A stretch of DNA of 64,000 bases, taken from Flavobacteriaceae bacterium UBA3611 (GTDB lineage Bacteria; Bacteroidota; Bacteroidia; Flavobacteriales; Flavobacteriaceae). The notes under the pieces were generated by a model. That model saw only the letters and a program-made list of their open reading frames with translations. It did not search any database and was not told where the DNA came from. Of the stretch, positions 32,710-48,037 are shown piece after piece. Within the stretch, counting starts at the first letter, position 1. Each line of letters starts with the position of its first letter. Made by a program: the position numbers and the translations under genes. The stretch lies in NCBI GenBank assembly GCA_002375495.1, contig DFLU01000005.1, forward strand, positions 103,503 to 167,502, in the 5' to 3' direction.

Positions 32710-32814
32710 GATAAATAAATTAGAAATCAGAAGAGTTCCGAAAATCTATTTACTGCCTAGCAGGTAATGCTTTAGATATACCGTAAAAATAACTGAACAG
32801 CTACCTCTTAGAAA

Positions 32815-32826
32815 TGATAATTATCA
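32815..32826 (-). promoter_or_regulatory. FNR-like box 2
   Basis: Perfect palindrome TGATAATTATCA, 23 nt from minus-strand TATTTTTA (32784-32791). Confidence 0.7.
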
Positions 32827-32899
32827 GTTTTGAAACGGCTGCTTTATTAAATTCACAGATGGATTTAACTATTTCCTCTAGAAAGAGCGTTTCGTACGG

Positions 32900-34270
32900 C
32901 TACACGAAAACAGTAACCACATCATTCAGCTTTGGTACCGTTACACGCCAAGAAAACGTAGCTTCCAGTTTTACGCTGAGTGCTTGTAATGAAGTAGGTT
33001 CACCATGAATTAGAAACGTATTTTCAGGTATATTTTTTATTTCACTCAACCAATGTAAGATCCCGTTCTGATCTGCATGGGCAGAGAGGCTTTCAATGTG
33101 TTCAACCGTAGCGTTCACTGGATAATACTTCCCGAAAAATTTCAGTTCATGTGCGCCTTCCAACAATTGTCGTCCCCTAGTGCCTTCCGCTTGATAACCC
33201 ACTAGTAGAATTGTAGTAGTTGGCACGTCGATGAGTTGTTGCATGTATGTTAGTACACGACCTCCTGTTACCATACCACTACCGGCGATTACAATTTTTG
33301 GTCTGGGGTCGTCAACTGTTTCCCATGTTTCTTTATACGATGAAACAATATGCATCCGTTTTTTCATAGCTTTAAATTCTGTGGGAGGGATTTTATGCCA
33401 TTGCGAAAACCGCTCAAAAACCCCCAGGACATTGCTACCCATAGGGCTATCTATAAATATTGGAATATTAGGGATACGCCGTTCATTATATAATTTCCAA
33501 AGAAGAAACATTAACGTTTGCAAACGTTCTACGGCAAAGGAAGGTATAATCAAAGTGCCGCGATTGTGAATTGTTTTGTTAATGAGTGCAATTAATTTTT
33601 CTGAAACACTCTCTTCTGGATGTAACTTTCCACCGTAGGTACTTTCCAAAAAAAGATAATCTGCCCATTGGGGCTTCTCTGGCGGGAACAATAACAGGTC
33701 ATTTTTCCTGCCTACATCTCCAGAAAATACAAACGTTTTACCAAAAAGCGCTAATTCGATAAAGGTAGCACCAATAATGTGACCGTTATATCGAAATCGA
33801 TATTTACAATTTTCCGAAAGCGAATGCCAGACATCTTTTTCTGCTGGCACCAACATCTTGATGGTGCGAGCGGCATCTTCAATCGTATAAAATGGCAAGG
33901 CTGGTTGGTGTTTAGAATACTTTTCTTTATTGGCACGTTCTGCATCTTCTTCATGTATTTTTGCGCTGTCCAACAATATAATTTTTGTGATTTCCAAGGT
34001 GGGTGAAGTTCCCATTATCTTACCCTGAAATCCCTGTTTCAGAAGCCTAGGTAGATAGCCTGTGTGATCTAAGTGACCATGGGTTAATAACACAGTGTCA
34101 ATGGCTGAAACCTCAAAAGATAGATCCTGCCAATTTTGCTCCCGCAATTCTTTTAGTCCCTGAAACATCCCACAATCTACAAGTATATTTTGTTCGGGTG
34201 TTTCTAATAAAAATTTAGATCCTGTGACGGTTCCCGAAGCTCCTAAAAAATGTATGTTAACAGTATTCAT
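32900..34270 (-). CDS. Metallo-beta-lactamase fold beta-CASP nuclease (YSH1/TTHA0252-like)
   Basis: Start MNTVNIHFLGA; THGHLDH, GHIIG, SGDVG, ESTYG and SAHAD motifs. Confidence 0.92.
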   Translation of the reverse strand: MNTVNIHFLGASGTVTGSKFLLETPEQNILVDCGMFQGLKELREQNWQDLSFEVSAIDTVLLTHGHLDHTGYLPRLLKQGFQGKIMGTSPTLEITKIILLDSAKIHEEDAERANKEKYSKHQPALPFYTIEDAARTIKMLVPAEKDVWHSLSENCKYRFRYNGHIIGATFIELALFGKTFVFSGDVGRKNDLLLFPPEKPQWADYLFLESTYGGKLHPEESVSEKLIALINKTIHNRGTLIIPSFAVERLQTLMFLLWKLYNERRIPNIPIFIDSPMGSNVLGVFERFSQWHKIPPTEFKAMKKRMHIVSSYKETWETVDDPRPKIVIAGSGMVTGGRVLTYMQQLIDVPTTTILLVGYQAEGTRGRQLLEGAHELKFFGKYYPVNATVEHIESLSAHADQNGILHWLSEIKNIPENTFLIHGEPTSLQALSVKLEATFSWRVTVPKLNDVVTVFV

Positions 34271-34271
34271 T

Positions 34272-35108
34272 TCAATTTGAGTTACATAGCATTGAGATTT
34301 CAGAAAGTATTTTTGCTTTGCGGGTTTCAGAAACACCCAAATGATCTAGGTAAAATACGTCGTTGGCCAATTGGCGGCACAGCACAATATCCCGACTTAG
34401 GAGAAATTGTTTTTCTCTATTAGTGAGCAAAGTTGAAACAGTTATTGGATAGAGCCCCAATCGGTCAATGCGATCCTTTAGCCCATTATCTTCAGGGTGG
34501 TCCCAACTAAGCAAATACAAACCTGCACATTTTCCGTAGGCAAGTGCATCTTTCGTAAACCGGGTGTTTGTGACCACCCAGCCTTCATTGGGGCAATTGG
34601 GTGTGTCTTTATATTGCGCAAGAATGTCTTGGTATCTAGAGTGAATGTACAAAGGCACTTTGACGTTACAGGTAGTTGATTTTTCACTATGAAATTTACA
34701 TTCGGCAACAATATGCTGCCCATTTTTAGATGCAATTACATCTACTTCATGCGACACACATTTGCCTTGCATTATTTTGCCCACCTCAACCTCATAACCA
34801 GCATATTTTAATACTGCGCCTATAAAATTTTCGAACGGAAACCCAGTGGGTCCCAACTCATAAATCGCCTTTTTGAGTTTGTATTTAGAAGCATAGATCG
34901 ACTTGCGCCTTTTCAACAGTGAGAACGCACGGTTGTAAATTTCTTTGGTAGAAATACCTTGGTACAATTCATCACGTACCACGTTGATGATATTGTCGAC
35001 AGTGAGTTCATCGGCCCCACTTCGATACAAGCTGGTCCTCAATTTGTCTATTGAAAAATCTACTTTTTCACCAGAAGACTTTATAACTTTAAAGGGTTCT
35101 TTTTTCAT
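34272..35108 (-). CDS. ATP-cone domain fused to Mrr-like PD-(D/E)xK nuclease domain
   Basis: N-terminal VIKSSGEKVDFSIDKL..SL ATP-cone pattern; then FE...EVDV...ECK nuclease motif. Confidence 0.8.
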   Translation of the reverse strand: MKKEPFKVIKSSGEKVDFSIDKLRTSLYRSGADELTVDNIINVVRDELYQGISTKEIYNRAFSLLKRRKSIYASKYKLKKAIYELGPTGFPFENFIGAVLKYAGYEVEVGKIMQGKCVSHEVDVIASKNGQHIVAECKFHSEKSTTCNVKVPLYIHSRYQDILAQYKDTPNCPNEGWVVTNTRFTKDALAYGKCAGLYLLSWDHPEDNGLKDRIDRLGLYPITVSTLLTNREKQFLLSRDIVLCRQLANDVFYLDHLGVSETRKAKILSEISMLCNSN

Positions 35109-35110
35109 AT

Positions 35111-35962
35111 TCAATTGCGGAAATCGTGCAAAGCTAATACGGGTACCTTTGCATTGAGACCCAAATCTTTTACCAAGGGTCTTGAGAAAATAGAACCAAA
35201 AAAGCTGTGTTTTTTATTAATAAAGGCAATCATTTCACTATTGCGGCTTTGCGCGAAGATGTTGAGCCCTGTTTGGACATCGGTATTTTCAAGTGTGTGG
35301 AAACTATATTTCAATCCTTCAAAACACGATTCGAGCAATGCTTTTTTCTCATTCTGTTCTTTTGAAAGTTCTTTTTCTTTTGAAATGTGCAAAATTCTAA
35401 TGGGCGCATTTGTAATGTTCGCAATTTCGTACAGATAGTTGAGCTCTCTTCGTTTATAATGCGTTTTGAAACTGGTGGGAAATACAATTTCGTTGGGTTT
35501 TTTAAAAGAGACATTTGCAGGAACCATAAATACAGGACAGTTGCGCACTTTTTCCATTATTTCGGCAGAACTCCTGCCAAAATTATAATTTTCATCATCT
35601 GTTTCTCCCCTAGAACCTATTGCTATTAGCTCGATATCGTATTTTTCAACCGTATTCTTAATTACTTCTACCAACGGACCAAATTCGCACATGAAATGAT
35701 ATGTATGGTTTGGATACTCATCTTCAAATTTCAGCTGTACCTTCAACCCCTCCATCTTTTTTTCAGAAGTATGCTTTAGTGATTGCAACACATCGCTTGA
35801 AGGTTCTGGAATCGATAAATTGTCTGTCGAGTAACCCAACGAAAAATACGTATTCAAAACATAGAATTCTACTTGTTGGTCTTTAAACAACTCAACTACA
35901 TACGCTATAGCATTTGTTGCATTTTTTGAAAAATCTGTCGGTACTAATATCCTTTTTTTCAT
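35111..35962 (-). CDS. Universal stress protein
   Basis: ILVPTDFS, IAIGSRG, CPVFMVP. Confidence 0.93.
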   Translation of the reverse strand: MKKRILVPTDFSKNATNAIAYVVELFKDQQVEFYVLNTYFSLGYSTDNLSIPEPSSDVLQSLKHTSEKKMEGLKVQLKFEDEYPNHTYHFMCEFGPLVEVIKNTVEKYDIELIAIGSRGETDDENYNFGRSSAEIMEKVRNCPVFMVPANVSFKKPNEIVFPTSFKTHYKRRELNYLYEIANITNAPIRILHISKEKELSKEQNEKKALLESCFEGLKYSFHTLENTDVQTGLNIFAQSRNSEMIAFINKKHSFFGSIFSRPLVKDLGLNAKVPVLALHDFRN

Positions 35963-36019
35963 CTTGATGAGCTTTATGGTTCTTCGTATAAAAATAAGCC
36001 CGAAACAGCCGTTTTACTA

Positions 36020-36031
36020 TGATATTTATCA
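36020..36031 (-). promoter_or_regulatory. FNR-like box 3
   Basis: TGATATTTATCA, 23 nt from minus-strand TATTTTTA (35989-35996); overlaps the upstream USP stop codon. Confidence 0.7.
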
Positions 36032-36877
36032 GTCTTGGGCAGGTACTATCAAAAATGGAATAAGCGAGAATTTTGCAATGTCTTTTACCGTAGCCTCCCT
36101 AAATAACCGCACAAAAACATTGTGCTTGTAATAGATCATTGCCAACAGATCTATATTTTCTTTTTGTATGTATGATGTAATTGCATTGTATGTGTCTGAA
36201 GTGCCCGGCAACCAATTGTTTTCTGGGTTCGTTTCTTCTAAGATTTCATGAAGTTGATGTGCGTTGGCACGTTGCTCGTCTGACTTTTTTTCCTTTTTTT
36301 GAACGTACACCACCTTCACGGTCGCATTTGTTTTTCCTACTAGTTCTAACAAGGGTTCAAGTTCAACTTTTGAGTATGGTCTCTTAAATCCTGTGGCAAA
36401 GGCAATTTTCTCTACCGATTTGAATTCGAAACCCTGGGGAATGATCAATAAGGATGCTTTCTTTATTTTGCGTATCATCGCAAGGGTATTGCTTCCAACT
36501 AAAATATCTGCAGCTCCGGTACTGCCTTTGTTACCCATAACGACAAGATCTGCCTGTTCTTTAACTATTAATTTATTTATTGCTCTTGCTAACGTGAGCG
36601 AGGTAGCTATAGTTTTATAGCTGTGATTGGCATTTGGAACGTCCTTCGCAATGGCATGTTTTACTTCATCACATTGTTCTTCGTAAGTCGAATAGAATTC
36701 TGCAACAACAGCTTCGGTTTTTGCAATATCTACCCGGCTGGTCATATGGCTTACTTGGTTTTCAAAAGAGTGCACAATAATAAATGTACATTCTGTTTCA
36801 GCATACAACTGTGCTGCATATTGTAATGCGGCGTATGCATTCGCTGAAAAATCTGTGGGAACAAGAATTGTTTTCAT
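36029..36877 (-). CDS. Universal stress protein
   Basis: ILVPTDFS, DLVVMGNKGSTG, GSNT. Confidence 0.93.
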   Translation of the reverse strand: MKTILVPTDFSANAYAALQYAAQLYAETECTFIIVHSFENQVSHMTSRVDIAKTEAVVAEFYSTYEEQCDEVKHAIAKDVPNANHSYKTIATSLTLARAINKLIVKEQADLVVMGNKGSTGAADILVGSNTLAMIRKIKKASLLIIPQGFEFKSVEKIAFATGFKRPYSKVELEPLLELVGKTNATVKVVYVQKKEKKSDEQRANAHQLHEILEETNPENNWLPGTSDTYNAITSYIQKENIDLLAMIYYKHNVFVRLFREATVKDIAKFSLIPFLIVPAQD

Positions 36878-36889
36878 AAAGGGAATGTT

Positions 36890-37738
36890 TTATTGTCTCT
36901 CTACGGAAGGGATCACCAAAAACGGGACATTGGTATGATACACCACCTGATTTATGACGGGTTTAAATAATAAGTTTTCTAAAAAATTGTGCTTGTTATG
37001 GATCATCACAATCAAATTGATTTTCGACTTCATTTGAAACTGTTCCACAGCACCCAATACGTCGGTTCCTTCTGCCTCATGAAAAAGGTGTGCATTACGG
37101 ATAAAATAGTTGTCCAAAAACGTTTTAGCTTCCTGTTGTTTTTCGGTTAATGCAGTACCGTAATACACATTCAACATATTTAATTCAGATACGTGCTGTT
37201 CGCACAGTTCCCGGAGCATTGGTAGATACTTATTGTCTTTGTCGAAGTTATAATCTGTAGGAAATAGAATTTCCTTCGGCTCTTCAAAACTGAAATTTTC
37301 AGGAACTGCCAATACGGGAACCTTTATTTTTTTAATGGCATACATGGTGTGTGTTCCCAAAAATATTTCTTTAGCTCCAGTAGCACCTTGCGTACCCATA
37401 ATTACAAGATCTATTCCTTTTTCTTCTATTATTAGTTCCATTTCTGAAATAAGCATATTAAAGCTTGTAGCATATTTCAAACTATGTTTGGGGTTTTTAA
37501 AACTTGCCTCGAGCTTTTCTTTAAGGGCATCCATCTTTTTATCTGCATTTTCTTTGGCTGCTTCTTGCAGTGTTATGGCAGAATAACTGTCCATCATACT
37601 TCCTGCGCTTATCATAGCTGGGGTATAGGTGTGCAACAAATAGAATGTGCATGTTTCCTGTTTATACAATTGAAGCGCATACGCTATGGCATTATAAGCG
37701 TTTTCTGAAAAATCTGTGGGCAACAATATTCGTTTCAT
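36890..37738 (-). CDS. Universal stress protein
   Basis: ILLPTDFS, DLVIMGTQGATG, VPVLAVP. Confidence 0.93.
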   Translation of the reverse strand: MKRILLPTDFSENAYNAIAYALQLYKQETCTFYLLHTYTPAMISAGSMMDSYSAITLQEAAKENADKKMDALKEKLEASFKNPKHSLKYATSFNMLISEMELIIEEKGIDLVIMGTQGATGAKEIFLGTHTMYAIKKIKVPVLAVPENFSFEEPKEILFPTDYNFDKDNKYLPMLRELCEQHVSELNMLNVYYGTALTEKQQEAKTFLDNYFIRNAHLFHEAEGTDVLGAVEQFQMKSKINLIVMIHNKHNFLENLLFKPVINQVVYHTNVPFLVIPSVERQ

Positions 37739-37766
37739 AGTATTCTTAATTTAAGTGAAGTTATTG

Positions 37767-38612
37767 TTATCTCGGTAGGTTTTGAAGGACCAAAAAGGGG
37801 ATTTCTATTTCTAAACCTATTTTTTCGATGGCAGAGCGATACAGCAGGTTTTCTAAATAAGAATGTCTGTGGTTTACCATCACAAGCATATCTATAACAC
37901 TGTCTTTCAAAGTTTTGTTTACTGCTGCGGTAATGTCTTTTCCAGGTGTTTTTATGTAAGAAATTTTCACGTCTTCAAAGCAGCACCCGGCAAGTGCTTT
38001 GTTATCTTGCTGTCTATGTGAAAGTTGCTCAGCTTCGGAAATATGCAGAAAATGAACTCTGGTAACAAATCGTTTCGCGATGGTATTTATAAGTTTTAGT
38101 TCCCTGCGATTAAATGGGAGCATATAATTGGTGGGGAATAGAATATTTTCTGGAGGATACCCGTGAAACCCAACGGGAACCGCTAGCACCGGACAACTAA
38201 CATATTTAATTACTTGAAGTGTCTGGCTACCAAAAGTAATATCGTCTTTATTCGTTTTTCCTTTGGTGCCCATTACAATAATATCTGCATTGCTTGTATT
38301 GGCCAGATCATTTACCTCATCTACCAGACTACCAAATTTGGCCACATATTCATAGGTGTGTTTTGGGTTGGGCGATAGCTCCAACATTTGGGCGATAACT
38401 TTTTGTAATGCCCTTTCTATTGCCGCTTCACTTTTTTGCTTGTATTCTTCAAAGAATTCACGGTCCATTTCCATGGTGTTTTCATATACATCATCGGCAA
38501 AAGCATTCATAATGACAAACCTGCTTTTTTCATATTTGAAGAGTTCTACCGCATAGCGAATAGCATTATCTGCAGTTTCAGAAAAATCGGTAGGAATGAT
38601 GACGGTTCTCAT
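37767..38612 (-). CDS. Universal stress protein
   Basis: VIIPTDFS, DIIVMGTKG, GSQT, CPVLAVP. Confidence 0.93.
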   Translation of the reverse strand: MRTVIIPTDFSETADNAIRYAVELFKYEKSRFVIMNAFADDVYENTMEMDREFFEEYKQKSEAAIERALQKVIAQMLELSPNPKHTYEYVAKFGSLVDEVNDLANTSNADIIVMGTKGKTNKDDITFGSQTLQVIKYVSCPVLAVPVGFHGYPPENILFPTNYMLPFNRRELKLINTIAKRFVTRVHFLHISEAEQLSHRQQDNKALAGCCFEDVKISYIKTPGKDITAAVNKTLKDSVIDMLVMVNHRHSYLENLLYRSAIEKIGLEIEIPFLVLQNLPR

Positions 38613-38668
38613 AGTAGCTGTTTTAGGTTTCCTATCCCAAAGCTACAGTGCGAAACATTCTTATAAAA

Positions 38669-38680
38669 TGATATTTATCA
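38669..38680 (-). promoter_or_regulatory. FNR-like box 4
   Basis: TGATATTTATCA, 23 nt from a perfect -7 element TAGCTTTG (38638-38645, minus strand). Confidence 0.75.
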
Positions 38681-38723
38681 GCCTAATAATAGATTGTACA
38701 TCTATTTGGCAGATAGAAGAAAA

Positions 38724-39560
38724 TTATTCGTGTAGCACCAAGAAAGGGATTCGGGTGTGGTAGCTAATTTTCTGGACCCGGGGTTTAAATAAAATTCGCT
38801 GGAAGAGATTGAGACTTTTCGCGATCATCACCACCATGTCTATTTTAAAAGAGCTGACAAACGACTGCAGCGCGTCTTCCAGATTAGGGTCTTCTACTAC
38901 GTGAAAGCTATGGGGTACCTCGGCCAAAGAATCATTTAGATAAATCCTGTTGGTATTTTGAAAAGCGTTTAAAGGTTGTTCATTTTGGGCTACCCTCAGA
39001 ACTTTGACCATCGATTGATGGATTTTTGCCATACCCTGCAACAGTTGCAGGACCTTGTTGGTATAAGGAATGTTGAAATCTGTAGGAAATCCGATATTTA
39101 CGGGCGGTTTAAAAGTAGCTTCTTCTGGGATGACCAAGATGGCACATTTAACTTTTGTAATAACAGCCCCCGTGCTGCTACCTACGGTTATTTCTTTTAT
39201 GCCTGAAGCACCTTTTGTGCCCATTGCTATTAGATCGATATTATTCGTTTTTACATAGCTCCGTATACTCTCAATAAAACGCCCTTTTACTACAGTTGCG
39301 ATGATGGCATGGTTGTTAATGCGGTTTTTAGCATTTACCCTAGCTACTAGCGAATCCATATTGTCCTGCAGTTCACTTTCAATTTCGCCCAATGCAAGGA
39401 AGCCTGCTGTGTGTAAATTTTCATCTCTAGGGAGAGTGTAAGCAGTATCGACGTGCAAGAAATGAAATGTGACACGTTCCTCACGAAAGAACTCAAAAGC
39501 ATATTGGATAGCGTTCCAAGCATTAAGAGAAAAATCTGTAGGAATTAATATATGCCGCAT
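38724..39560 (-). CDS. Universal stress protein
   Basis: ILIPTDFS, DLIAMGTKGASG, GSST, CAILVIP. Confidence 0.93.
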   Translation of the reverse strand: MRHILIPTDFSLNAWNAIQYAFEFFREERVTFHFLHVDTAYTLPRDENLHTAGFLALGEIESELQDNMDSLVARVNAKNRINNHAIIATVVKGRFIESIRSYVKTNNIDLIAMGTKGASGIKEITVGSSTGAVITKVKCAILVIPEEATFKPPVNIGFPTDFNIPYTNKVLQLLQGMAKIHQSMVKVLRVAQNEQPLNAFQNTNRIYLNDSLAEVPHSFHVVEDPNLEDALQSFVSSFKIDMVVMIAKSLNLFQRILFKPRVQKISYHTRIPFLVLHE

Positions 39561-39608
39561 TACTTTTGATTATCGTACAAAAGTATTAGGGTGCTAAGCA
39601 GTAAAGAA

Positions 39609-39620
39609 TGACAATTATCA
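39609..39620 (-). promoter_or_regulatory. FNR-like box 5
   Basis: TGACAATTATCA, 23 nt from a perfect -7 element TACTTTTG (39578-39585, minus strand). Confidence 0.75.
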
Positions 39621-39634
39621 GTTACTCAAAATTA

Positions 39635-40681
39635 TTACTCCATCATCTCAAGGGCCTTCAGATCACGAATGGTAATATTTCTACCCTCGATTTCTATAAG
39701 ATTCTTCTTTTTGAATTCAGACAAGGTACGTATCAAACTTTCTGTGGCGATTCCGGCCACGCTAGCCAAGTCTGCACGTGAAATCTTGATGGCTTCGTCA
39801 GGTTTCTTGTTGAGAATCTTTGAAAACTGTAAAATAGTCTGGGCCGTTTTTTTACGTACTGAGCTGTATGCCATTTGTAGCAGTTGTTCTTTTATTTCTG
39901 AAACGGTATCACTCAACACATTCACAAGTGCCAAGGATACTTTTTGATTTTTGCCAAGAATATCTTTTAATGAACTTTTAGAGATGCCAGCCAATTCTGA
40001 TTCTTCAACAGCAGTAGCTGTTTCCTCATAGGGTACATTATCTTCAAAAGAAGTAAATCCCACAAATTCATCTTCCTTATAAAGTGCCGTGATGAGTTCT
40101 TTACCACTTTCATCCAATTTATGACTTTTTACGACTCCTTTTAATATAAGGAAAATAGTATTGGAGCGACTCCGCTCTTCGTAAATAACCTCCCCTTTTT
40201 TGTAGGTGCTAATTACACCATTATCGTCAAAAAAATTTTTTAGTTCGTTTAAGTCCCGAAGATCATCTTCCTTTTCTGTGAAAGTTGGCGCTATGGCTTT
40301 CGCTAAAATTTCAGCTTTTGCCAATCTACTTTCAATGGCGCTTATTAATTCATCCTCTTCAAAAGGCTTGGTAAGGTAATCGTCTGCCCCGAGGTCCATC
40401 CCTTTTCGTATTTCTTTGTGCTCTGTTTTGGCAGATAAGAATATAAAGGGAATGTGTGCCGTTTTTTCATCTAAAGATAAGGCTTCCAGTACTCCATAAC
40501 CATCTACTTCGGGCATCATTATATCGCAAACAATGAGGTTTGGCAGGTATTCCTTAGCCATATCGATACCAATCTTACCGTTAGGAGCCGTAAAAACATG
40601 GTAATTGGCAAGTTCTAACAGTTCTGCAGTGTTTTCTCGAAGGGCAGTATCGTCTTCTATTAAAAGTATGTTTTTCATCAT
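39635..40681 (-). CDS. Response regulator: REC domain fused to CRP/FNR-family cNMP-binding-like and HTH domains
   Basis: IEDD, D53 in VCDIMMP, GADDYLTKP; CRP-like beta-roll (YKKGEVIY...ILKGVV); HTH ISRADLASVAGIATESLIRTLSEF. Confidence 0.93.
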   Translation of the reverse strand: MMKNILLIEDDTALRENTAELLELANYHVFTAPNGKIGIDMAKEYLPNLIVCDIMMPEVDGYGVLEALSLDEKTAHIPFIFLSAKTEHKEIRKGMDLGADDYLTKPFEEDELISAIESRLAKAEILAKAIAPTFTEKEDDLRDLNELKNFFDDNGVISTYKKGEVIYEERSRSNTIFLILKGVVKSHKLDESGKELITALYKEDEFVGFTSFEDNVPYEETATAVEESELAGISKSSLKDILGKNQKVSLALVNVLSDTVSEIKEQLLQMAYSSVRKKTAQTILQFSKILNKKPDEAIKISRADLASVAGIATESLIRTLSEFKKKNLIEIEGRNITIRDLKALEMME

Positions 40682-42198
40682 TGGTCTTTATCAGTGATTG
40701 GAATGGTTACCACAAAAGTGGAGCCCTTATTTTCAATACTTGTAAATGTAATGCTGCCTCCCAAGTTTTCCAAATGCGTCTTTACAATATTGAGCCCAAT
40801 ACCGGTTCCTTGGTTCAGCAAAGCATTTTCGGCTCTAAAGTATCGGTTAAAAATGTGCTTTTGTTCTTCTTTTGGAATTCCAATCCCTTCATCTGAAATG
40901 GAAATCTTAAGGCTATCTTCGTTCTGTTCAATAATTATATTTACGGTGGTATTTTCTGAAGAATACTTAACCGCATTGTTAATCAAATTGGTTAAAACGA
41001 GTGCCAAGATTTTTTCATCAAAGTGTACCACAATAGTATCTATGCCTTCGGGATAGGCAATCGTTTGTCCTTCCTTCAACATCATATTGGCATCATAAAT
41101 AACTTCGTTCACCACTTTACTCAACGGAAAACTCGCAAAATTGTAGTTTACACTTCCACTTTCAAGCCGTTCTATGGATAAAAAATCATTGATGATATTA
41201 TTGAGGTATTTTACCTTACTGGTTATAGTGTTAAGGTGTTTCTCCCGTTTTTCCTGTTGGTCTTCTTTTGTATATTTTCCGGCCAACGTGGCAGAAGTTA
41301 AAATACCGCTCAATGGCGTTTTAAATTCATGAGAAACCAATGACAAAAATTTTGTTTTCAGTTCGCCCAATTCTTTTTCTTTTTTGAGGGCATCTTGCAA
41401 CTGTCGGGTACGAATGGCAACTTCCTTTTCCAATTTATTCGTGTACTCAACTCGTTCGGTAATGTCTAAAATTATGGCTACCAGAGTATCTTTATTCTCT
41501 TTCACCGTTTTCTGCAAATGAACTTCAACAGGATATGTACTTGCGTCTTTACGTTGATGCGTGGTATAGAATATTAGCTTTTCTTTTTCACCAATTAATA
41601 AAGGTGTGATTTCATTCCGAAAAGCAGCTTCGTCAAAATCGGGTTTAATATCTACTGGGGTCATACTTCTCAATTCGTCCAGTGTATATCCTATGTTTTG
41701 TTGTGCCCCCTTATTCACATCCATGAATTTTAATGTGGCTGCATCAAATATGAAAATTTCGTTGAGTGATTCGTTAAAAATCTCAGCCCAGTGCTTCAAT
41801 TCCTGTTCAGCTTTTTTTCTAACGGTAATGTCAATTACCAAAGCCATTACATACTCTTGGTCATAGATGGAAAAGGGGTTCAATCCGGCCTCGACTGGGA
41901 AATGTGATCCATCTTTTCGGCGTCCGTATAAATTGCGACCATGCCCCATAGAACGCTTCTCGCTCTTATCCATAAATTCATCTACATGCGAATGGTGGCT
42001 ATGATGGTATTTTTTGGGGATCAAAATATCGAGGTGCTGCCCTAGCAATTCGTCCTCGGCATATCCAAAAACTTCGTTTGCCGCCGAGTTGGTCGCCACA
42101 ATGTGTTGCTCTTTGTTTACGATAACGATTCCCTCAGAAACGGCTTCTGATAAAATCTTAAAAACATTGCTCCCCTTTTTAAATACTTCCATAGGCAT
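40678..42198 (-). CDS. Double-PAS cytoplasmic sensor histidine kinase, FixL-like
   Basis: PAS-A LIPKKYHHSH...GRRKDGSHFPVE, PAS-B, H-box SHEFKTPL, NLINNAVKYS, DEGIGIP, GTGIGL; no TM segment. Start may be 42192. Confidence 0.92.
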   Translation of the reverse strand: MPMEVFKKGSNVFKILSEAVSEGIVIVNKEQHIVATNSAANEVFGYAEDELLGQHLDILIPKKYHHSHHSHVDEFMDKSEKRSMGHGRNLYGRRKDGSHFPVEAGLNPFSIYDQEYVMALVIDITVRKKAEQELKHWAEIFNESLNEIFIFDAATLKFMDVNKGAQQNIGYTLDELRSMTPVDIKPDFDEAAFRNEITPLLIGEKEKLIFYTTHQRKDASTYPVEVHLQKTVKENKDTLVAIILDITERVEYTNKLEKEVAIRTRQLQDALKKEKELGELKTKFLSLVSHEFKTPLSGILTSATLAGKYTKEDQQEKREKHLNTITSKVKYLNNIINDFLSIERLESGSVNYNFASFPLSKVVNEVIYDANMMLKEGQTIAYPEGIDTIVVHFDEKILALVLTNLINNAVKYSSENTTVNIIIEQNEDSLKISISDEGIGIPKEEQKHIFNRYFRAENALLNQGTGIGLNIVKTHLENLGGSITFTSIENKGSTFVVTIPITDKDQ

Positions 42199-42219
42199 AA
42201 AGGTACATAAATATTGAAC

Positions 42220-42231
42220 TGATAAATGTCA
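42220..42231 (+). promoter_or_regulatory. FNR-like box 6
   Basis: TGATAAATGTCA, 23 nt before TATTTTTA (42255-42262); also directly upstream of the divergent kinase gene. Confidence 0.7.
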
Positions 42232-42282
42232 TAGCACAGCTCAATTCGCCTTATTATTTTTACACTATTAAAAGATTAAAAG

Positions 42283-42690
42283 ATGGAAAAAATTAGTGCT
42301 ACCGAATTAGTATTCTATCAAAAATTAGGAGAACTTTTTTACGCCATTGCTGCCTCAGACAAGGTAGTGCGCGAAGCCGAGTATAAAACCCTCACACAAA
42401 TCGTAGAAGAAAGGTGGAAGCAAATAGACGACTACGAAGACCAATTTGGCAGTGATGCCGCGTACCAAATTTCAATCGTTTTTGAATGGTTTGATTATGA
42501 GCAAATGGATGCAGACGATTGTTTTACAAGCTTTTCCGATTATTACATGGAACATAAAAGTTTGTTTAGCGAACTACGCAAAAATCTTATACTGAACACG
42601 GCGCACAGTATTGCAGAAGCGTTTGCAGGCACCAATAAAAGTGAGTTAATCATGATCGCTAAACTTGAATTACTTTTTAACAAACACTAA
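42283..42690 (+). CDS. Hypothetical protein, TerB-like fold possible
   Basis: LFYAIAASDKVVREAE and IAEAFAGTNKSEL resemble TerB helices. Confidence 0.6.
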   Translation: MEKISATELVFYQKLGELFYAIAASDKVVREAEYKTLTQIVEERWKQIDDYEDQFGSDAAYQISIVFEWFDYEQMDADDCFTSFSDYYMEHKSLFSELRKNLILNTAHSIAEAFAGTNKSELIMIAKLELLFNKH

Positions 42691-42701
42691 ACCCCTTTTT
42701 T

Positions 42702-43601
42702 ATGAAATACTTAGTGCTATCACTATCGCTGCTATTGTTTTTATCTTGTAAAAACGATACATCGCGGCCCACAGACACCCCAAATACCGAGGTGAATACT
42801 TCAATAGAAAGTGATGATACTTTTGAGCAAGTACTTCCGTTCGATTCTATCTACACCAACAATGATACGGAATTGAAAAAAACCAAATCGGTAGTCATAA
42901 AAAGACAAAATTTAATCGACAAAGAAGACGACAAAAAAGAATTAGAGGAATTGGTCATTCAAAAAACCTTTAAAAAAGATGAAGATTTATACCTAATAGA
43001 CTTTACCTATCCGTACCTGAATGAAGAGTTAAAAGCTTCGTACCACAACTTTAATGAATATCTGGAAGAAACATATATGGATATTGCTGGGGTGGAAGCT
43101 AGTATTTTAGAAGACAAAGAATTGATATGTGACACCTTACGCATCAACCGATTTAAGGAAAAACGCTTTGTAGATTATAAAATCTACAACTTAAACGCGT
43201 CCCTTATAAGTGTGCTTTTCTACAAGGAAAACTATTATTCTGGCACTTTGCACCCTTCATACACCTTCGATTGTTTAAACTTCGATTTGGAACGCTCGGT
43301 ATTTATGGATTATGAAGATTTTTTTAATGAAGGGACCGAAGAGGAAATGACACAAATTTTAAACGAAGTACTTCGAGAAAAAATAAATAGTGGTGACATC
43401 TATTTTGATTGTTGGGAAATTACCTTCGATGATTTTTTTGAGTACAAAGACAATTTCGTAGTAGACGATGCTAAGGTAGAATACTACTTTGACGACTGCG
43501 TTATCTGCCCGTCTTACACAGGCACATTCTCTGTAGAGATTCCGCTAGAGCGATTATTGCCTGTACTTAGAAAATATAAATTTAACCCCTTTATGATGTA
43601 A
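42702..43601 (+). CDS. Lipoprotein with DUF4163/DUF3298 (RsiV/PdaC-like) domains
   Basis: Lipobox FLSC; ISVLF..YYSGTLHP...NFDL..FF..NF.V..YF pattern. Confidence 0.7.
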   Translation: MKYLVLSLSLLLFLSCKNDTSRPTDTPNTEVNTSIESDDTFEQVLPFDSIYTNNDTELKKTKSVVIKRQNLIDKEDDKKELEELVIQKTFKKDEDLYLIDFTYPYLNEELKASYHNFNEYLEETYMDIAGVEASILEDKELICDTLRINRFKEKRFVDYKIYNLNASLISVLFYKENYYSGTLHPSYTFDCLNFDLERSVFMDYEDFFNEGTEEEMTQILNEVLREKINSGDIYFDCWEITFDDFFEYKDNFVVDDAKVEYYFDDCVICPSYTGTFSVEIPLERLLPVLRKYKFNPFMM

Positions 43602-43602
43602 T

Positions 43603-44247
43603 ATGAGATTCTACGCAATTTTGTATGTAGTGGCCTATCTATTATTTGTAGGTACACTTTTCATATTGCCACTATTCTCTTTTGAAGGTGCTTCGATTCT
43701 AGAAACTACAATCGGAGCACTGGGAGCGCAGAAAGTACCTGGAAATTGGTTCGCAAACGCAACGGTCATCTTATTGAGTTTTGCAGTGGTACCGCTCGCC
43801 ACAAAACAGTTAGGGAGTTATTGGAAACAGCTCGCAGTGCTCTATACCTTTTGTATCGTCTTTTTCTTTACGGGAATGTACCAATTGGCGGGTCTAGATG
43901 CACAGCAATATATTTTTAATTATACCAATGACGCGCTGCATTCCTTATTTTCAGTTATTACTGGGTTTGCTTTTTGTCTTTTTTGCGTTTTCTTTATCGT
44001 TATTTTAAAAGAAAAAGCACATAGATGGCAAACAGTTATAGTTTTCTCATTGGCATTGATACTACCGTTGCTTATGTGGTACTTTCCGGCATATAAAGGC
44101 ATTTTACAACGTGTTCTTTTTCTGGTAACTTTTGGTTGGTTATTTTATGCATTAACTTCATACCCGTTGAAGAGAAGCAACAGTAAAGCTTCACAAATTA
44201 GACGTTATAACGAGCTGAAAAAACACATTCAAAAAGATGAAAAGTAA
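43603..44247 (+). CDS. Membrane protein (DUF998-like)
   Basis: Multi-TM; TIGALGA, LHSLFS and GILQR motifs. Confidence 0.7.
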
Positions 44248-44533
44248 TTTTAATTCTATTATCAACTCTGAAATACCTGTATTGGTCGATTTTTTTGCTG
44301 AATGGTGCGGGCCGTGCAAAGCACTTGCGCCTATTCTTAAAGACGTCAAGGCAGAAATGGGTGATGCTGTAAAAATTGTAAAGATTGATGTTGATAAAAA
44401 CCAGCCACTTGCAGCACAATATCAAGTGCGTGGTGTACCAACAATGCTCTTGTTTAAAAATGGAAAGCAAGTATGGAGACAAAGCGGGGTGTTGCAAAAA
44501 CAAGAAATCATAAATAGAATTCGCGCTAAGTGA
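44237..44533 (+). CDS. trxA: Thioredoxin
   Basis: WCGPC active site and GVPT. Confidence 0.93.
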
Positions 44534-44534
44534 A

Positions 44535-45197
44535 ATGACAAATCTTCACAACTTTATAGAACACACCTTGCTTAAAGCCACAGCAACAACCGCTGACATC
44601 ATTACACTTTGTGACGAAGCGAAACAATATGATTTCTTCGGTGTTTGTGTGAATAGCTGCTATGTATATTTAGCGGTTAATGAATTGAAAGATCATCGCA
44701 CCAAAGTGATAGCCACCGTAGGGTTTCCTTTGGGAGCATCTTCTACAAAAACGAAGATTGAGGAAGCAAAACAAGCGGTAAAAGACGGAGCAGACGAAAT
44801 TGATATGGTGATGAATCTTGGTTTTTTTAAATCTGGAATCACCAAATCAGTCACTGAAGAAATTCGAGCGATTAAAAAAGCTATTGGAAGGCGCATTTTA
44901 AAAGTGATTATTGAAACCTGTTATTTGAATGCTGCTGAAATGAAACTCGCTTGCAAAATGGTACGTTTGGCTGGAGCAGATTTTGTAAAAACCTCAACCG
45001 GATTTGGCAATAAGGGAGCGTTGCTAAAAGATGTACAATTATTAAAAAGCATCGCAAACGAAGATGTGGGAATCAAAGCTTCTGGCGGAATCAAAACAGC
45101 GAAACAGGCCATTGCATTTATAGATGCTGGCGCAACCAGAATAGGATCCTCGAATGGTGTCGCCATGGTGTATGAGCCAGAAAATCATAAAGAATGA
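44535..45197 (+). CDS. deoC: Deoxyribose-phosphate aldolase
   Basis: HTLLK, VGFPLG, EIDMV, KVIIET, FVKTSTGF, KASGGI, RIGSS. Confidence 0.96.
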   Translation: MTNLHNFIEHTLLKATATTADIITLCDEAKQYDFFGVCVNSCYVYLAVNELKDHRTKVIATVGFPLGASSTKTKIEEAKQAVKDGADEIDMVMNLGFFKSGITKSVTEEIRAIKKAIGRRILKVIIETCYLNAAEMKLACKMVRLAGADFVKTSTGFGNKGALLKDVQLLKSIANEDVGIKASGGIKTAKQAIAFIDAGATRIGSSNGVAMVYEPENHKE

Positions 45198-45245
45198 GAG
45201 TACAGAATTATTTAATGATTAAAAACACTTAGAACAAAGCAATTT

Positions 45246-45650
45246 ATGTCGTATTCCATTTGTGCCACAGCAACTCCTGAAAAAGAAGGCGAAATCATTT
45301 TCAATGAAACTTCCGCTTCGTTTGGTATCACAACCAGCAGTGACCAAGAACTCCCTAGTCCTGCAGATGTATTCTTGGGCGCACTCGCCGCTTGCATTCT
45401 TAAGAACGTACAGCGCTTCTCAGGAATGATGAAATTTGAATATCAAGAAGCCAACGTCACGGTTTCTGCAACCTATGCCCAAAAACCGTCTAGGTTAGAA
45501 AACATTACCTATGAGCTTGTGATTTTAAGTAGTGAAGAAAAGATTAATACGCCGTTGTTAAAACGGAATCTTTCAAAATTTGGGACTATTTACAACATGA
45601 TAGCAAAAGCCACCGAAGTTTCTGGAACGGTAACCCATAACAGAATCTAA
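45246..45650 (+). CDS. OsmC family protein
   Basis: SPADVFLGALAAC and GTIYN motifs; only one of the two canonical Cys residues is evident. Confidence 0.8.
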   Translation: MSYSICATATPEKEGEIIFNETSASFGITTSSDQELPSPADVFLGALAACILKNVQRFSGMMKFEYQEANVTVSATYAQKPSRLENITYELVILSSEEKINTPLLKRNLSKFGTIYNMIAKATEVSGTVTHNRI

Positions 45651-45723
45651 AAGTGTAGTCATTATTAGTATAATTACCTTTCGTATTGCAGCGTATTTTT
45701 TTAAAAATTTAATATCCGATATT

Positions 45724-46179
45724 ATGATCAAGACCTTAGACGATAAAGAAAAATTGTTACTGCTCAGTTCTAATTATATTGGCAGTATGGGCTATATATT
45801 TCAAGACAAATGTTTTGTAGTACCCATCACCTATTTCTATAACCAAGAACAACATAACATTATCGGTTATTCAGCCAACGGACATAAAATTAATGCACTA
45901 CGAAAGAATAATTCCGTATCCCTATCTGTGACCGATATCGACTCGGTAAACGACTGGAAATCGGTATTAGTCCATGGCAGGTATGAGGAACACGAAGGAA
46001 CTATCGCTACCGCATTGCTGCATCAATTTTCATTAGGGGTAAAAGATCTTATTCTACGGAAAGAGTTACGGGATCTAGATTTTATAAGTCAGTTTTCCAG
46101 CAAGATTCACATCGACGATATGCCCATAATTTTTACTATCAATATCGAAGAAATTACTGGAAGAATGCGGAAGTTTTAA
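45724..46179 (+). CDS. Pyridoxamine 5'-phosphate oxidase-like FMN-binding protein
   Basis: VVPITY, GHKINALRKN..V, WKSVLVHGRYEE, ITGR motifs. Confidence 0.88.
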   Translation: MIKTLDDKEKLLLLSSNYIGSMGYIFQDKCFVVPITYFYNQEQHNIIGYSANGHKINALRKNNSVSLSVTDIDSVNDWKSVLVHGRYEEHEGTIATALLHQFSLGVKDLILRKELRDLDFISQFSSKIHIDDMPIIFTINIEEITGRMRKF

Positions 46180-46180
46180 T

Positions 46181-46214
46181 AAAAAAAGGAACCCTTTCAC
46201 AAGAATTCCTTTTT
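46181..46214. terminator. Bidirectional terminator between convergent genes
   Basis: AAAAAAGGAA...TTCCTTTTT stem with A/T tails on both sides. Confidence 0.55.
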
Positions 46215-46234
46215 CCATCCTACTGAAACACCCA

Positions 46235-47068: not shown

Positions 47069-47380
47069 CTAAGAGGATATGTTTTGGTTCGTAAATTTTG
47101 CTTTTCGCTTTTTTAATTGCTTTTCGAGGTCTGAAATGGTTTCTTTTACAGCCATCTCATAATTTTTTTCGTTGGAAGCTGCAAAAATTTTAGGTCCCGG
47201 TAAGCTCAGTTCCATTTCGCAGATTTGTCCTTTTTCGGTAGGATCATTCTCTTGTTTAAAGAAAACATCGGCTCTAATTACCCATTCATATTTTTTTGCG
47301 AGTCGTTGTAACTTCTTAGAAGTATAATCAACCATGCTTTCGCTGGTTTTCATTTTTACAAATTGAATATCTATAGTCAT
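47069..47380 (-). CDS. hpf: Ribosome hibernation factor (short HPF/RaiA)
   Basis: Start MTIDIQF (alternative 47395); YTSKKLQRL, ICEMELSLPG..IFA, AVKETISDLEKQLKKRK S30AE pattern. Confidence 0.85.
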   Translation of the reverse strand: MTIDIQFVKMKTSESMVDYTSKKLQRLAKKYEWVIRADVFFKQENDPTEKGQICEMELSLPGPKIFAASNEKNYEMAVKETISDLEKQLKKRKAKFTNQNISS

Positions 47381-47434
47381 AGCGTTTCGTTTCATTGTTT
47401 CTTCAAAAATAAAAAGCAACCCTACTTTAAACTA

Positions 47435-47446
47435 TGATAAATATCA
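47435..47446 (-). promoter_or_regulatory. FNR-like box 7
   Basis: TGATAAATATCA, 23 nt from a perfect -7 element TATTTTTG (47404-47411, minus strand). Confidence 0.75.
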
Positions 47447-47477
47447 GTTACAACAATTGAGACTGAGCACTCATTAT

Positions 47478-47987: not shown

Positions 47988-48037
47988 TTTCAGTAAATTA
48001 AAAGTCTAAAGTTAGTTTCTGAAACAACTTTTTACTA

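Follow-up and report, generated by a model that had tools for sequence, protein, structure and literature searches.

Results

Organization of the A-B locus

Two predicted nuclease genes, which we call A and B, lie on the minus strand of the window (the whole 64,000-nucleotide stretch of Flavobacteriaceae DNA analysed here) as the last cistrons of an operon whose first cistron, USP5, encodes a universal stress protein (USP; Table 1). The preliminary description had placed them one nucleotide apart, directly behind a run of USP genes and downstream of a site termed FNR-like box 3, and the open reading frame map agrees in each respect: the USP5 stop codon (35111-35113) lies 2 nt ahead of the ATG of A, and from the stop codon of A and the ATG of B it follows that a single base (34271) separates the pair. 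An upstream TTG at 35114 is a less likely start for A than the ATG. USP5-A-B, with intergenic gaps of only 2 and 1 nt and a single box ahead of it, is one operon, of which that box, a putative CRP/FNR-like operator, is probably the control site. The next such box, past the end of B and ahead of a 145-aa gene, marks where the following transcription unit begins and so sets the 3' limit of USP5-A-B. A REC-cNMP-HTH_Crp regulator and a PAS histidine kinase encoded in the window presumably control the regulon that these boxes define.

As had also been noted, there is no methyltransferase nearby, no DNA methyltransferase being found among the open reading frames from 27 to 43 kb. Rfam gave no match in or near the A-B locus, and a scan for sigma-70 promoters and terminators gave no excess over shuffled sequence, the sigma-70 promoter type being inapplicable to Bacteroidota.

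Table 1. Genes, encoded domains and candidate operators at the A-B locus (window coordinates).
Feature	Coordinates	Strand	Details
PAS histidine kinase	40678-42198	minus	Pfam
REC-cNMP-HTH_Crp regulator	39635-40681	minus	Pfam
CRP/FNR-like operator CTGATAAATATCAT (FNR-like box 3)	36019..36032	minus	56 nt upstream of USP5 ATG; putative
USP5	35111..35962	minus	283 aa; tandem-domain universal stress protein; Pfam Usp 6.3e-19
Gene A	35108-34272	minus	278 aa; open reading frame map; ATG at 35108, stop TGA at 34274-34272
A residues 1-85, ATP-cone, putative adenine-nucleotide sensor	34854..35108	minus	Pfam PF03477
A residues 86-200, PD-(D/E)xK nuclease core, AF1548/Mrr_cat type	34509..34853	minus	Mrr_cat
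A residues 201-278 and stop, AF1548-like C-terminal helical domain	34272..34508	minus	Alignment to AF1548 residues ~120-192
Gene B	34270-32900	minus	456 aa; ATG at 34270; minimal beta-CASP/RMMBL metallo-nuclease, RNA type (Pfam)
Next CRP/FNR-like box CTGATAATTATCAT	32814..32827	minus	Between B and following 145-aa gene

Gene A joins an ATP-cone to a PD-(D/E)xK nuclease

The product of A is, as first proposed, an ATP-cone joined to an E..D..ExK nuclease domain, and both parts match their Pfam models above the cutoffs: PF03477 at residues 7-66 (30.2 bits; family threshold 25.8) and Mrr_cat at residues 89-197 (23.2 bits; cutoff 21). A genome-wide scan with PF03477 recovers both A and a paralogue, A' (32.8 bits). 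A phmmer search of the PDB with the ATP-cone segment alone matched no solved ATP-cone; in the AF2 model of A (pLDDT 96), the segment is predicted to form the four-helix bundle capped by a beta-hairpin that superposes on solved cones, with an rmsd of 1.7-2.1 Å over 81-85 residues relative to that of E. coli NrdR, and the Foldseek matches include NrdR (9fvr, 9gex, 9a6n) and the cones of ribonucleotide reductases (RNR; 5im3, 3hnf, 5olk). Across 92 diverse homologues, conservation is 90% or higher at K10, G13, K22 and T54, of which K10, K22 and T54 correspond to the Lys and Thr ligand-contact positions of E. coli NrdA. The likeness to NrdR and to NrdA, NrdB and NrdD thus covers the N-terminal ~85 residues, which pass the ATP-cone HMM threshold and superpose, whereas the output domain in those proteins is a reductase or a zinc-ribbon repressor and in A a predicted nuclease; at the 'KR(D/N)G' motif A reads K-S-S-G, so that the canonical Arg is missing. 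The presence of an ATP-cone, as judged from the HMM match and the modelled fold, suggests that A may be gated by nucleotides.

The catalytic motif of the second domain, E93...D123...E136-x-K138, is invariant in the same 92 sequences from bacteria and archaea, as are E121, R158, D161 and N181. Residues 95-271 are homologous to AF1548 of Archaeoglobus fulgidus (PDB 1Y88; sequence E 8.4e-26, Foldseek E 2.2e-14, TM 0.79), which has the same D...ExK core and C-terminal helical domain but no ATP-cone; AF1548 is itself a structural-genomics protein called a restriction endonuclease by sequence and structure prediction only (PMC1821046). The helical domain, whose model PF22357 (AF1548-like_C) matches A' at 23.4 bits and many of the homologues as well, is probably a nucleic-acid-binding tail. 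The HMM match and the intact catalytic constellation identify A as a predicted member of the Mrr_cat/AF1548 group of PD-(D/E)xK nucleases. It might be supposed that A is not an enzyme but an NrdR-like nucleotide-sensing regulator that binds DNA or RNA, or a chaperone modulating B or genes nearby, given that NrdR, the one further small ATP-cone protein known to stand alone, is a repressor and that the helical domain could bind nucleic acid. We consider this highly improbable, as strict retention of E93, D123, E136 and K138 from bacteria to archaea would be unexpected of a degenerate nuclease fold. Assignment of A as a type IV (Mrr-like) restriction enzyme was also rejected, its N-terminus being an ATP-cone rather than a modified-DNA reader (Mrr_N/SRA-like) and its context a stress operon.

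Gene B encodes a beta-CASP nuclease of the RNA type

Pfam finds Lactamase_B, Beta-Casp (1.4e-30) and RMMBL (4.5e-17) in B, and the MBL/beta-CASP motif set is as complete as originally described: D32, H64xH66xD68H69, H164, D185, E209, H398 and H422 are all present and invariant in 76 orthologues. A His at motif C together with RMMBL is reportedly the signature of the RNA-directed members of the family, as set out by Callebaut et al. in 2002. By its MBL motifs 1-4, beta-CASP motifs A-C with H422 as the motif C His, and RMMBL domain, B is predicted to belong to this RNA-metabolising branch. It shares the same seven motifs and the motif C His with Thermus thermophilus TTHA0252, archaeal and eukaryotic CPSF73 and Cas14; in the PDB it aligns end to end with the TTHA0252 RNase (6.1e-66) and over the MBL/beta-CASP part with Cas14 (9.4e-66). 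Unlike aCPSF1 it has no KH domains and unlike Cas14 it lacks that protein's C-terminal domain, and what distinguishes B is its fixed partnership with A. Three family assignments were tried and rejected: Cas14 (an NCBIfam score of 366.7 bits where 800 are required, the match spanning model positions 1-425 of 612, with USP neighbours and no CRISPR array in the window), RNase J (TIGR00649, 16.6 bits against 400) and aCPSF1 (TIGR03675, 264 bits against 580, through the catalytic part alone, positions 174-629).

The pair might instead act on DNA. A could cut DNA as an endonuclease that is gated by nucleotides and specific for structure or damage, resembling NucS/EndoMS or Hjc, and B an SNM1/Artemis-like 5' exonuclease working on DNA ends, the two repairing or trimming the chromosome of dormant cells when dNTPs are low. 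A PD-(D/E)xK core with a helical C-terminal domain is typical of DNA enzymes, and the Foldseek neighbours of the A nuclease include NucS/EndoMS (2vld, 5gke) and MspJI/AspBHI, besides the RNA/DNA-cutting Can2 (7bdv, 8bao and 9u49, the Can2/Card1/Cdn1 set); dATP, a DNA-precursor signal, is classically read by ATP-cones; B has a weak similarity (32 bits) to the ligase-associated exonuclease family TIGR04122; and among the archaeal and CPR-like A genes, which stand alone, an archaeal one lies between two DNA-repair genes, for a LigD phosphoesterase domain (LigD-PE) and endonuclease III (EndoIII). We nevertheless regard a role in DNA maintenance as quite unlikely. The motif C His and RMMBL of B, whose closest characterised relative is an RNase, speak against it, as do the recurrent partners of the pair, which are genes for NMP-phosphorylase-like, PRPP-synthetase and fermentation enzymes rather than ligases, Ku or recombinases, and repair genes occur in 0/80 flavobacterial loci.

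A and B are inherited as a unit

The coupling of A to B that had been proposed from their proximity held up in a survey of gene neighbourhoods: in 70 of 80 related loci, loci without USP genes included, A is followed directly by B, and the trees of the two proteins are congruent (r=0.92; 0/999 permutations). In a sample of 401 Bacteroidota genomes the close B subfamily, defined by an identity of 45% or more, has 39 copies, of which 34 are directly downstream of A, whereas a remote B paralogue (33-38%), present in most of these genomes, never is. Only 34 of the 61 copies of A in the same sample have an adjoining B, so A is not obligatorily paired, and B relatives throughout the Proteobacteria occur without A. 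The A-B pair is also found in Chlamydiia, where the genes overlap. Sequences of the A family number in the thousands across Bacteroidota, Chlamydiota, archaea and CPR-like bacteria (the last two groups being sampled through a single contig each, one archaeal-like and the other CPR-like). No genes of the island are better conserved or evolve more slowly than A and B, whose mean identities are 67.6% and 67.7%, compared with 62.5% for the regulator and 41.7% for the USP; their synteny is stable, largely vertical and fixed within the stress regulon in ~70 loci. These observations support a two-nuclease module inherited as a unit.

One natural A-B fusion was found, in a single cluster (P0271) from one contig, and a wider search for fusions gave no more; it is therefore an anecdote rather than a trend. 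An AF2 model of this fusion (pLDDT 85.9, pTM 0.61), computed from a shallow alignment of 20 paired rows made by translating across the one in-frame stop that separates A from B, contained no confident A-B interface and a disordered linker (280-298).

The same survey bears on defence against phage. The preliminary description had left two roles open, RNA turnover in dormancy or abortive defence, and in the latter the ATP-cone would sense ATP or dNTP shifts caused by a phage and unleash both nucleases on host or phage nucleic acid. The layout of A, with an N-terminal nucleotide-ligand sensor and a C-terminal PD-(D/E)xK nuclease, mimics that of the CARF-nuclease effectors of type III CRISPR systems, Can2, Card1 and Cdn1, whose nuclease cores are fold neighbours of that of A; B is the closest stand-alone relative of the type VII CRISPR protein Cas14; and A is patchily distributed in Bacteroidota (34 of 179 genera). 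The CARF sensor, however, is unrelated to the ATP-cone, and A is not a member of the Can2/Card1/Cdn1 family and has no CRISPR or defence context: no CRISPR array is present in the window, and no methylase, integrase or other defence gene adjoins the pair. A occurs in 0/50,697 phage records and 2/72,556 plasmid records, and PADLOC gave no family match, only superfamily-level matches with E values of 1e-4 or weaker. On the strength of this distribution and the lack of a defence-model match we reject the defence branch of the earlier proposal; slow evolution of A and B and their fixed place in the stress regulon likewise make an anti-phage role very improbable.

A probable low-oxygen regulon

In the 3.38-Mb genome the strict box pattern [CG]TGATAANT[AG]TCA[TC] occurs seven times, and all seven matches, box 3 among them, are inside the window (32814-52414). 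The operator consensus is cTGATAAnT(A/G)TCAt. A canonical FNR box, TTGAT-N4-ATCAA, was rejected as the operator, showing no enrichment in the window (8 matches versus 5.75 expected). The 80 A loci related to this one show a 17-fold enrichment of the box, which is placed at USP gene boundaries upstream of A, and in ~30 of them the genes are in the order HK-CRP-USPxN-A-B; both box and REC-CRP regulator are present here and conserved across related loci. Another box of the regulon lies at position 47435 of the window.

Relatives of B are strongly induced in the low-oxygen regulons of Burkholderia and Bradyrhizobium. BCAM0300, in the lxa locus of Burkholderia cenocepacia, is induced at low oxygen (PMC3721108, PMC6127331), and the bll3117-bll3116-bll3115 operon of Bradyrhizobium diazoefficiens, induced in microoxia (PMC6515984), has a FixK2 box, with bll3115 down 30.6-fold in a fixK2 mutant (PMC9104804); BCAM0300 and bll3115 were assigned to the B family by annotation, size and synteny, not by their sequences. 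A syntenic homologue of BCAM0300 (L098) is 41.5% identical to B, and Proteobacterial beta-CASP genes at syntenic plasmid and chromid loci are 41-43% identical over the full length. The Proteobacterial loci resemble those of A-B in their USP, P-type ATPase, acetate kinase, phosphoketolase, thymidine-phosphorylase-family and PRPP-synthetase genes and in their CRP/FNR-type boxes; they differ in that the Burkholderia and Bradyrhizobium beta-CASP loci contain no A. The text of the Burkholderia lxa paper mentions neither an ATP-cone nor a nuclease gene, and one review discusses BCAM0300 as a beta-lactamase (PMC12071387). By analogy, USP5-A-B probably belongs to a local CRP/FNR-type low-oxygen/energy-stress regulon, the induction experiments being those on B relatives in Proteobacteria only (PMC9104804, PMC3721108).

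A second pair heads a putative nucleotide-recycling cassette

The genome contains a second, anciently diverged pair, A'-B' (locus L003, contig C12), at the head of a cassette with genes for a thymidine/AMP-phosphorylase-like enzyme and a PRPP synthetase. The same four-gene order is found in Owenweeksia, Pontibacter and, among the Chlamydiota, Criblamydia, with phosphoketolase, acetate kinase, glycogen phosphorylase and P-type ATPase genes in the flanks, and the A tree and the B tree alike place A'-B' with the Owenweeksia/Chlamydiae lineage. The cassette-linked arrangement of the A-B module is older than the one in the window and more widespread; neither a phosphorylase nor a PRPP synthetase gene adjoins the copy in the window. 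The phosphorylase scores 480-506 bits on the AMP-phosphorylase model, under the equivalog cutoff of 535, and 589-603 bits on TIGR02645, the archaeal-type 'putative thymidine phosphorylase'. This enzyme, encoded outside the window, can be likened to that of the archaeal NMP degradation (pentose bisphosphate) pathway, DeoA; unlike in that pathway, no gene for ribose-1,5-bisphosphate isomerase or RuBisCO is seen beside it, and a PRPP-synthetase homologue of the PRK07199 subfamily is found instead.

The cassette also bears on a purely regulatory role, in which the pair would cleave particular mRNAs, rRNA or tRNA and so, alongside the USPs, halt translation as cells become dormant in hypoxia, nucleotide recycling being incidental. 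Such a role would suit the part played in mRNA processing by CPSF73 and RNase J relatives, and the table that lists bll3117-3115 also has bll4412, a 'translational machinery protein' of Bradyrhizobium with a predicted FixK2 box that is down in the fixK2 mutant (PMC9104804). It seems unlikely to us, as pure regulation would hardly account for a genomic association with phosphorylase and PRPP-synthetase genes that is conserved across phyla, and an element that could confer specificity, such as a toxin-antitoxin partner or an RNA-binding KH or S1 domain, is absent.

Discussion

In the reading that we favour, and to which we give about an even chance, A and B constitute an adenylate-gated module that breaks down nucleic acid, probably RNA rather than DNA, and recycles its nucleotides under oxygen or energy starvation, by a mechanism that we infer as follows. 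The ATP-cone of A would read the state of the adenine-nucleotide pool, ATP versus dATP, ADP or AMP, and nucleotide binding would shift the oligomeric state of the protein, as in RNR and NrdR, so that the PD-(D/E)xK nuclease is turned on or off. Active A would presumably act first, making endonucleolytic entry cuts, and B, possibly in contact with it, would degrade the resulting fragments to 5'-NMPs as a 5'-3' exo/endoribonuclease of the TTHA0252/CPSF73 type. In the cassette form, the products of the genes beside the pair, an AMP-phosphorylase-like enzyme and a PRPP-synthetase homologue, would then take up the NMPs, the net effect being that RNA, with idle rRNA or mRNA as the most plausible source, is converted to phosphoribosyl units and bases when respiration fails. 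The RNA-turnover branch of the preliminary description is the one supported: it fits motif C of B, the link to NMP-phosphorylase-like and PRPP-synthetase genes, and the low-oxygen relatives of B.

A consideration on the other side is that the fold of A, PD-(D/E)xK with a helical C-terminal tail and with MspJI and NucS among its neighbours, more often belongs to a DNA enzyme, which counts against RNA as the substrate.

What is understood of ATP-cones is confined to their regulation of dNTP synthesis. An ATP-cone and an intact nuclease in one conserved family would mean that this allosteric switch also serves to control the degradation of nucleic acids, and defining what A and B do would give a testable mechanism for the disposal and recycling of RNA in non-growing, oxygen-starved bacteria, a question of dormancy and persistence, and would clarify the ancestral function of the nuclease that was recruited by type VII CRISPR. 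It is tempting to go further and speculate that A represents a third functional class of ATP-cone proteins, beside the ribonucleotide reductases and NrdR, and is the adenylate-gated gatekeeper of a bacterial pathway that uses RNA as emergency fuel: A would open idle RNA, B would reduce it to NMPs, the archaeal-type NMP phosphorylase and PRPP-synthetase homologue would yield phosphoribosyl sugars, and phosphoketolase and acetate kinase would generate ATP from these. Genes for the last two enzymes lie beside the cassette in Criblamydia and are co-regulated by FixK2 in Bradyrhizobium; we offer the proposal tentatively, as a doubtful one.

A minor observation concerns Halalkalibaculum, in which an ATP-cone is fused to a glucoamylase two genes away from a solo A; this fusion hints that the same sensor also gates the mobilisation of glycogen.

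Gene organization and control region

A single base separates the stop codon of A (TGA, 34274-34272) from the ATG of B (34270), and only 2 nt lie between the stop codon of USP5 and the ATG of A, in agreement with the preliminary description, which had placed the two genes 1 nt apart and directly behind the universal stress protein (USP) array. Because these intergenic gaps are too small for promoters, USP5-A-B is predicted to be a single transcription unit. The 66-nt spacer 5' of USP5 contains the CRP/FNR-like palindrome CTGATAAATATCAT, whose strict form, [CG]TGATAANT[AG]TCA[TC], has seven matches in the 3.38-Mb genome, all of them confined to a 20-kb stretch of the window (32814-52414); the 'FNR-like box 3' noted upstream of the pair is thus a real box and a member of a local regulon. 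A relaxed pattern adds operator matches at 47435 and 51593, and the window shows no enrichment of the textbook TTGAT-N4-ATCAA motif. In flavobacterial loci, operator density is 17 times that of the genome at large, with the sites at USP gene boundaries upstream of A. In this genome the operator points to a strictly local regulon.

Coordinates of the features discussed (positions are those of the window unless another locus is named)
Feature	Position	Strand	Remarks
Gene A	35108-34272	minus	278 aa; ORF map and sequence
Gene B	34270-32900	minus	456 aa; ORF map and sequence
USP5, tandem-domain USP gene	35111-35962	minus	precedes A
Operator 5' of USP5	36019-36032
REC-cNMP-HTH_Crp regulator and PAS kinase	39635-42198		Pfam; adjoin the local regulon
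Second module copy	G000 (this genome) contig C12:440266-442780 = locus L003 5043-10662	minus	outside the window
84-aa ORF between A' and B'	L003 8644-8898	minus	fills ~310-nt spacer
A-B fusion, single 752-aa ORF	L089 5903-8161 = G045:C19	minus	Bacteroidota; linker ~20 residues
ATP-cone-PF10091 fusion, Halalkalibaculum sp.	L083 9193-10722	plus	509 aa
SAM-II riboswitch	454-559	plus	Rfam RF01726
Short tandem arrays	10441-10609 and 11540-11655		intergenic

Two predicted nucleases

The proposed fusion of an ATP-cone to an E..D..ExK nuclease was borne out by Pfam, which assigns residues 7-66 of A to the ATP-cone (30.2 bits, cutoff 25.8) and residues 89-197 to Mrr_cat (23.2 bits, cutoff 21). By sequence search, residues 95-271 are homologous to AF1548 (PDB 1Y88; E 8.4e-26), a structural-genomics protein that is itself only a predicted endonuclease (PMC1821046). 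An AlphaFold2 model with 92 homologues as input was very confident (pLDDT 96, pTM 0.91), and its top Foldseek match was AF1548 (E 2.2e-14, TM 0.79), followed by the ATP-cones of NrdR and RNR (rmsd 1.7-2.1 Å over ~85 residues) and by the nuclease cores of Can2, Cdn1, MspJI, AspBHI and NucS. Since E93, E121, D123, E136, K138, R158, D161 and N181 are invariant in 92 sequences with 34-87% identity to A, the nuclease is almost certainly catalytic. The cone, which lacks the KR(D/N)G-motif Arg, keeps part of the classical ligand-contact set, as K10, G13, K22 and T54 are each at least 90% conserved in the same sequences. A word search returned more than 7,500 homologues. At 50% identity there are 443 clusters with E <1e-30, nearly all ~280 aa long and organised in the same three domains; our literature search turned up no publication describing an ATP-cone nuclease.

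B contains the Pfam domains Lactamase_B, Beta-Casp and RMMBL and does possess the full MBL/beta-CASP motif set ascribed to it, with all seven motifs (D32, H64xH66xD68H69, H164, D185, E209, H398, H422) invariant in 76 orthologues. A His at motif C together with the RMMBL domain marks the RNA-acting branch of the beta-CASP superfamily. Among solved structures, B is nearest to Thermus RNase TTHA0252 (6.1e-66) and to the catalytic portion of Cas14 (9.4e-66); archaeal and eukaryotic CPSF73 and Integrator subunit 11 come next. Assignment to Cas14 was rejected (366.7 bits versus a cutoff of 800), as were RNase J and aCPSF1 by family-model scoring, and no CRISPR array was found in the window.

Co-conservation and joint inheritance

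The co-conservation of A and B, which the preliminary description had left to a gene-neighbourhood survey, is strong but asymmetric. Among 80 loci retrieved with A as query from a species-representative genome collection, B lies immediately 3' of A on the same strand in 70, and at least four of the other ten are contig ends. The commonest order is HK-CRP-USPxN-A-B-(145-aa gene)-(lipoprotein)-D-LDH, where HK is the PAS histidine kinase and CRP the regulator; where USPs or regulators are absent or rearranged, A and B are still together. In an evenly drawn sample of 401 Bacteroidota genomes, for which pairing counts were tallied by hand from two tables, 56 genomes (34 of 179 genera) have A and 257 have beta-CASP genes, whose identity to B is bimodally distributed. 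Most genomes contain the remote paralogue (33-38% identity), which adjoins A in none. The close subfamily (≥45%) comprises 39 copies, of which 34 immediately follow A and a further one is within 1 kb, whereas B adjoins only 34 of the 61 copies of A; the close B subfamily in Bacteroidota is therefore essentially always partnered and A is able to stand alone. Outside Bacteroidota and Chlamydiota, where sampling was anecdotal, solo A genes were seen on one archaeal-like and one CPR-like contig.

The A and B trees are congruent over 76 pairs (distance correlation 0.92, reached by none of 999 permutations). A second, diverged pair on contig C12 of the same genome (A' 51% and B' 55% identical to the window pair) provided a test of joint evolution independent of the species tree: in both trees A' and B' group with Owenweeksia and Chlamydiia sequences, apart from the window pair, so that there are two old lineages of the pair, each moved and inherited as a unit. 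The C12 locus encodes a USP, A', an 84-aa ORF, B', an archaeal-type thymidine/AMP-phosphorylase-like protein and a PRPP-synthetase homologue, flanked by P-type ATPase, D-LDH, SDR, MgtC/DUF4010, PFK, aldolase and GAPDH-like genes; the window's operator has no copy there. In Chlamydiia MAGs, which have the pair without USPs, the stop codon of A overlaps the start codon of B. In one Bacteroidota genome the two are fused into a single gene, which adjoins a peroxiredoxin gene; a dedicated search for further fusions found no second cluster. An AF2 model of the fusion, with 20 naturally in-frame paired rows as input, has well-folded modules and a disordered linker (pTM 0.61), with no confident interface between A and B.

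The small acidic 84-aa ORF, ending ...PSCCGGL, has no Pfam match and is kept at the same position in two other genomes, G391 (63% identity) and G100 (55%); a role as accessory or regulatory subunit of the C12-type ('type 2') cassette is possible. At these loci (L101, G391:C1:2036500-2040000; L102, G100:C5:93500-97000), B' is 91-92%, A' 75-77% and the small ORF 55-63% identical, in a comparison of this genome with another Flavobacteriaceae genome and one of a different family of the phylum, suggesting that the cassette was recently transferred horizontally or that B' is under unusually strong constraint. In Aequorivita spp. (L012, L019, L032), a second A-like gene on the opposite strand directly follows B (order A+ B+ A-), so that the beta-CASP gene is bracketed by two ATP-cone nucleases.

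Probable physiological role and low oxygen

The preliminary description had also raised abortive defence. This is contradicted by the distribution of A, which is found in none of 50,697 phage records and in two of 72,556 plasmids, both copies inside a metabolic cassette, by PADLOC, which returned no more than marginal superfamily hits, and by conservation: across Flavobacteriaceae loci A (67.6% mean identity) and B (67.7%) are the most conserved island genes, ahead of the regulator (62.5%), kinase (55.5%) and USP (41.7%). A defence function is thus very improbable, and the pair has the profile of physiological enzymes.

Relatives of B without A occur on 236 plasmids or chromids of Proteobacteria (41-43% identical, full length), in islands with Hsp20, USPs, nitroreductases, alcohol dehydrogenase, acetate kinase and P-type ATPases and often with the type-2 phosphorylase and kinase. 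BCAM0300 of the Burkholderia cenocepacia lxa locus (51 kDa; 'metallo-beta-lactamase superfamily'; COG class Translation) is higher both under low oxygen and in late cystic-fibrosis isolates (PMC3721108, PMC6127331). The Bradyrhizobium diazoefficiens bll3117-bll3116-bll3115 operon is induced by microoxia at the RNA and protein levels (PMC6515984) and has a FixK2 box; mutation of fixK2 lowers bll3115 30.6-fold (PMC9104804). We infer that BCAM0300 and bll3115 belong to the B family from their annotation and size and from their synteny with the sequenced homologues L098 and L096. A review credits hypoxia-induced BCAM0300 with a contribution to beta-lactam resistance (PMC12071387), but its size, its COG class and L098, a syntenic homologue with 41.5% full-length identity to B, indicate an enzyme of the beta-CASP RNase type and not a beta-lactamase. 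We consider it highly probable that A and B function and are inherited together as a unit within a low-oxygen or energy-stress regulon.

The type-2 layout, A-B-(thymidine-phosphorylase-family)-(ribose-phosphate pyrophosphokinase), is carried by this genome (L003), Owenweeksia (L080), a Pontibacter plasmid and a Criblamydia plasmid. The phosphorylase is of archaeal type (589-603 bits on TIGR02645; 480-506 bits on the AMP-phosphorylase model, slightly below its cutoff of 535) and the kinase belongs to the PRK07199 subfamily. The surrounding genes (phosphoketolase, acetate kinase, glycogen phosphorylase, glucoamylase, P-type ATPase, PFK, aldolase, D-LDH) make up a fermentation and energy-maintenance set.

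The B signature and these NMP-metabolising partners make RNA the probable substrate of the pair. In the mechanism that we favour, the ATP-cone would report the adenylate or dATP state and, on the model of RNR and NrdR, switch the nuclease of A through oligomerisation; A would make entry cuts and B would reduce the resulting fragments to 5'-NMPs, for salvage or catabolism by the phosphorylase/Prs pair where this is encoded. The chances that A-B serves such nucleotide-gated RNA breakdown and recycling seem to us evenly balanced. Regulatory RNA decay in translational shutdown, a close variant, is conceivable but doubtful. A serious rival is DNA maintenance, to which the PD-(D/E)xK fold with a helical tail typical of DNA enzymes, the presence of NucS and MspJI among the fold neighbours of A, and the LigD-PE and EndoIII genes adjoining an archaeal A homologue all point; we regard it as unlikely.

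Other observations

In Halalkalibaculum sp., an island that also encodes a P-type ATPase, a GAPDH-like protein and cytochrome c carries a solo A and, two genes downstream of it, a fusion of an ATP-cone (26.6 bits) with the 'putative glucoamylase' domain PF10091; the PF10091 gene of the Criblamydia cassette is without an ATP-cone. The cone may gate reserve mobilisation more generally. Elsewhere in the window, the SAM-II riboswitch match (48.3 bits) exceeds the gathering score of 44, and the two tandem arrays, which repeat every 14 nt and 13 nt, consist of GTTGGAA/GTCTTTA-type and AGCTCAGTGTAAC units.
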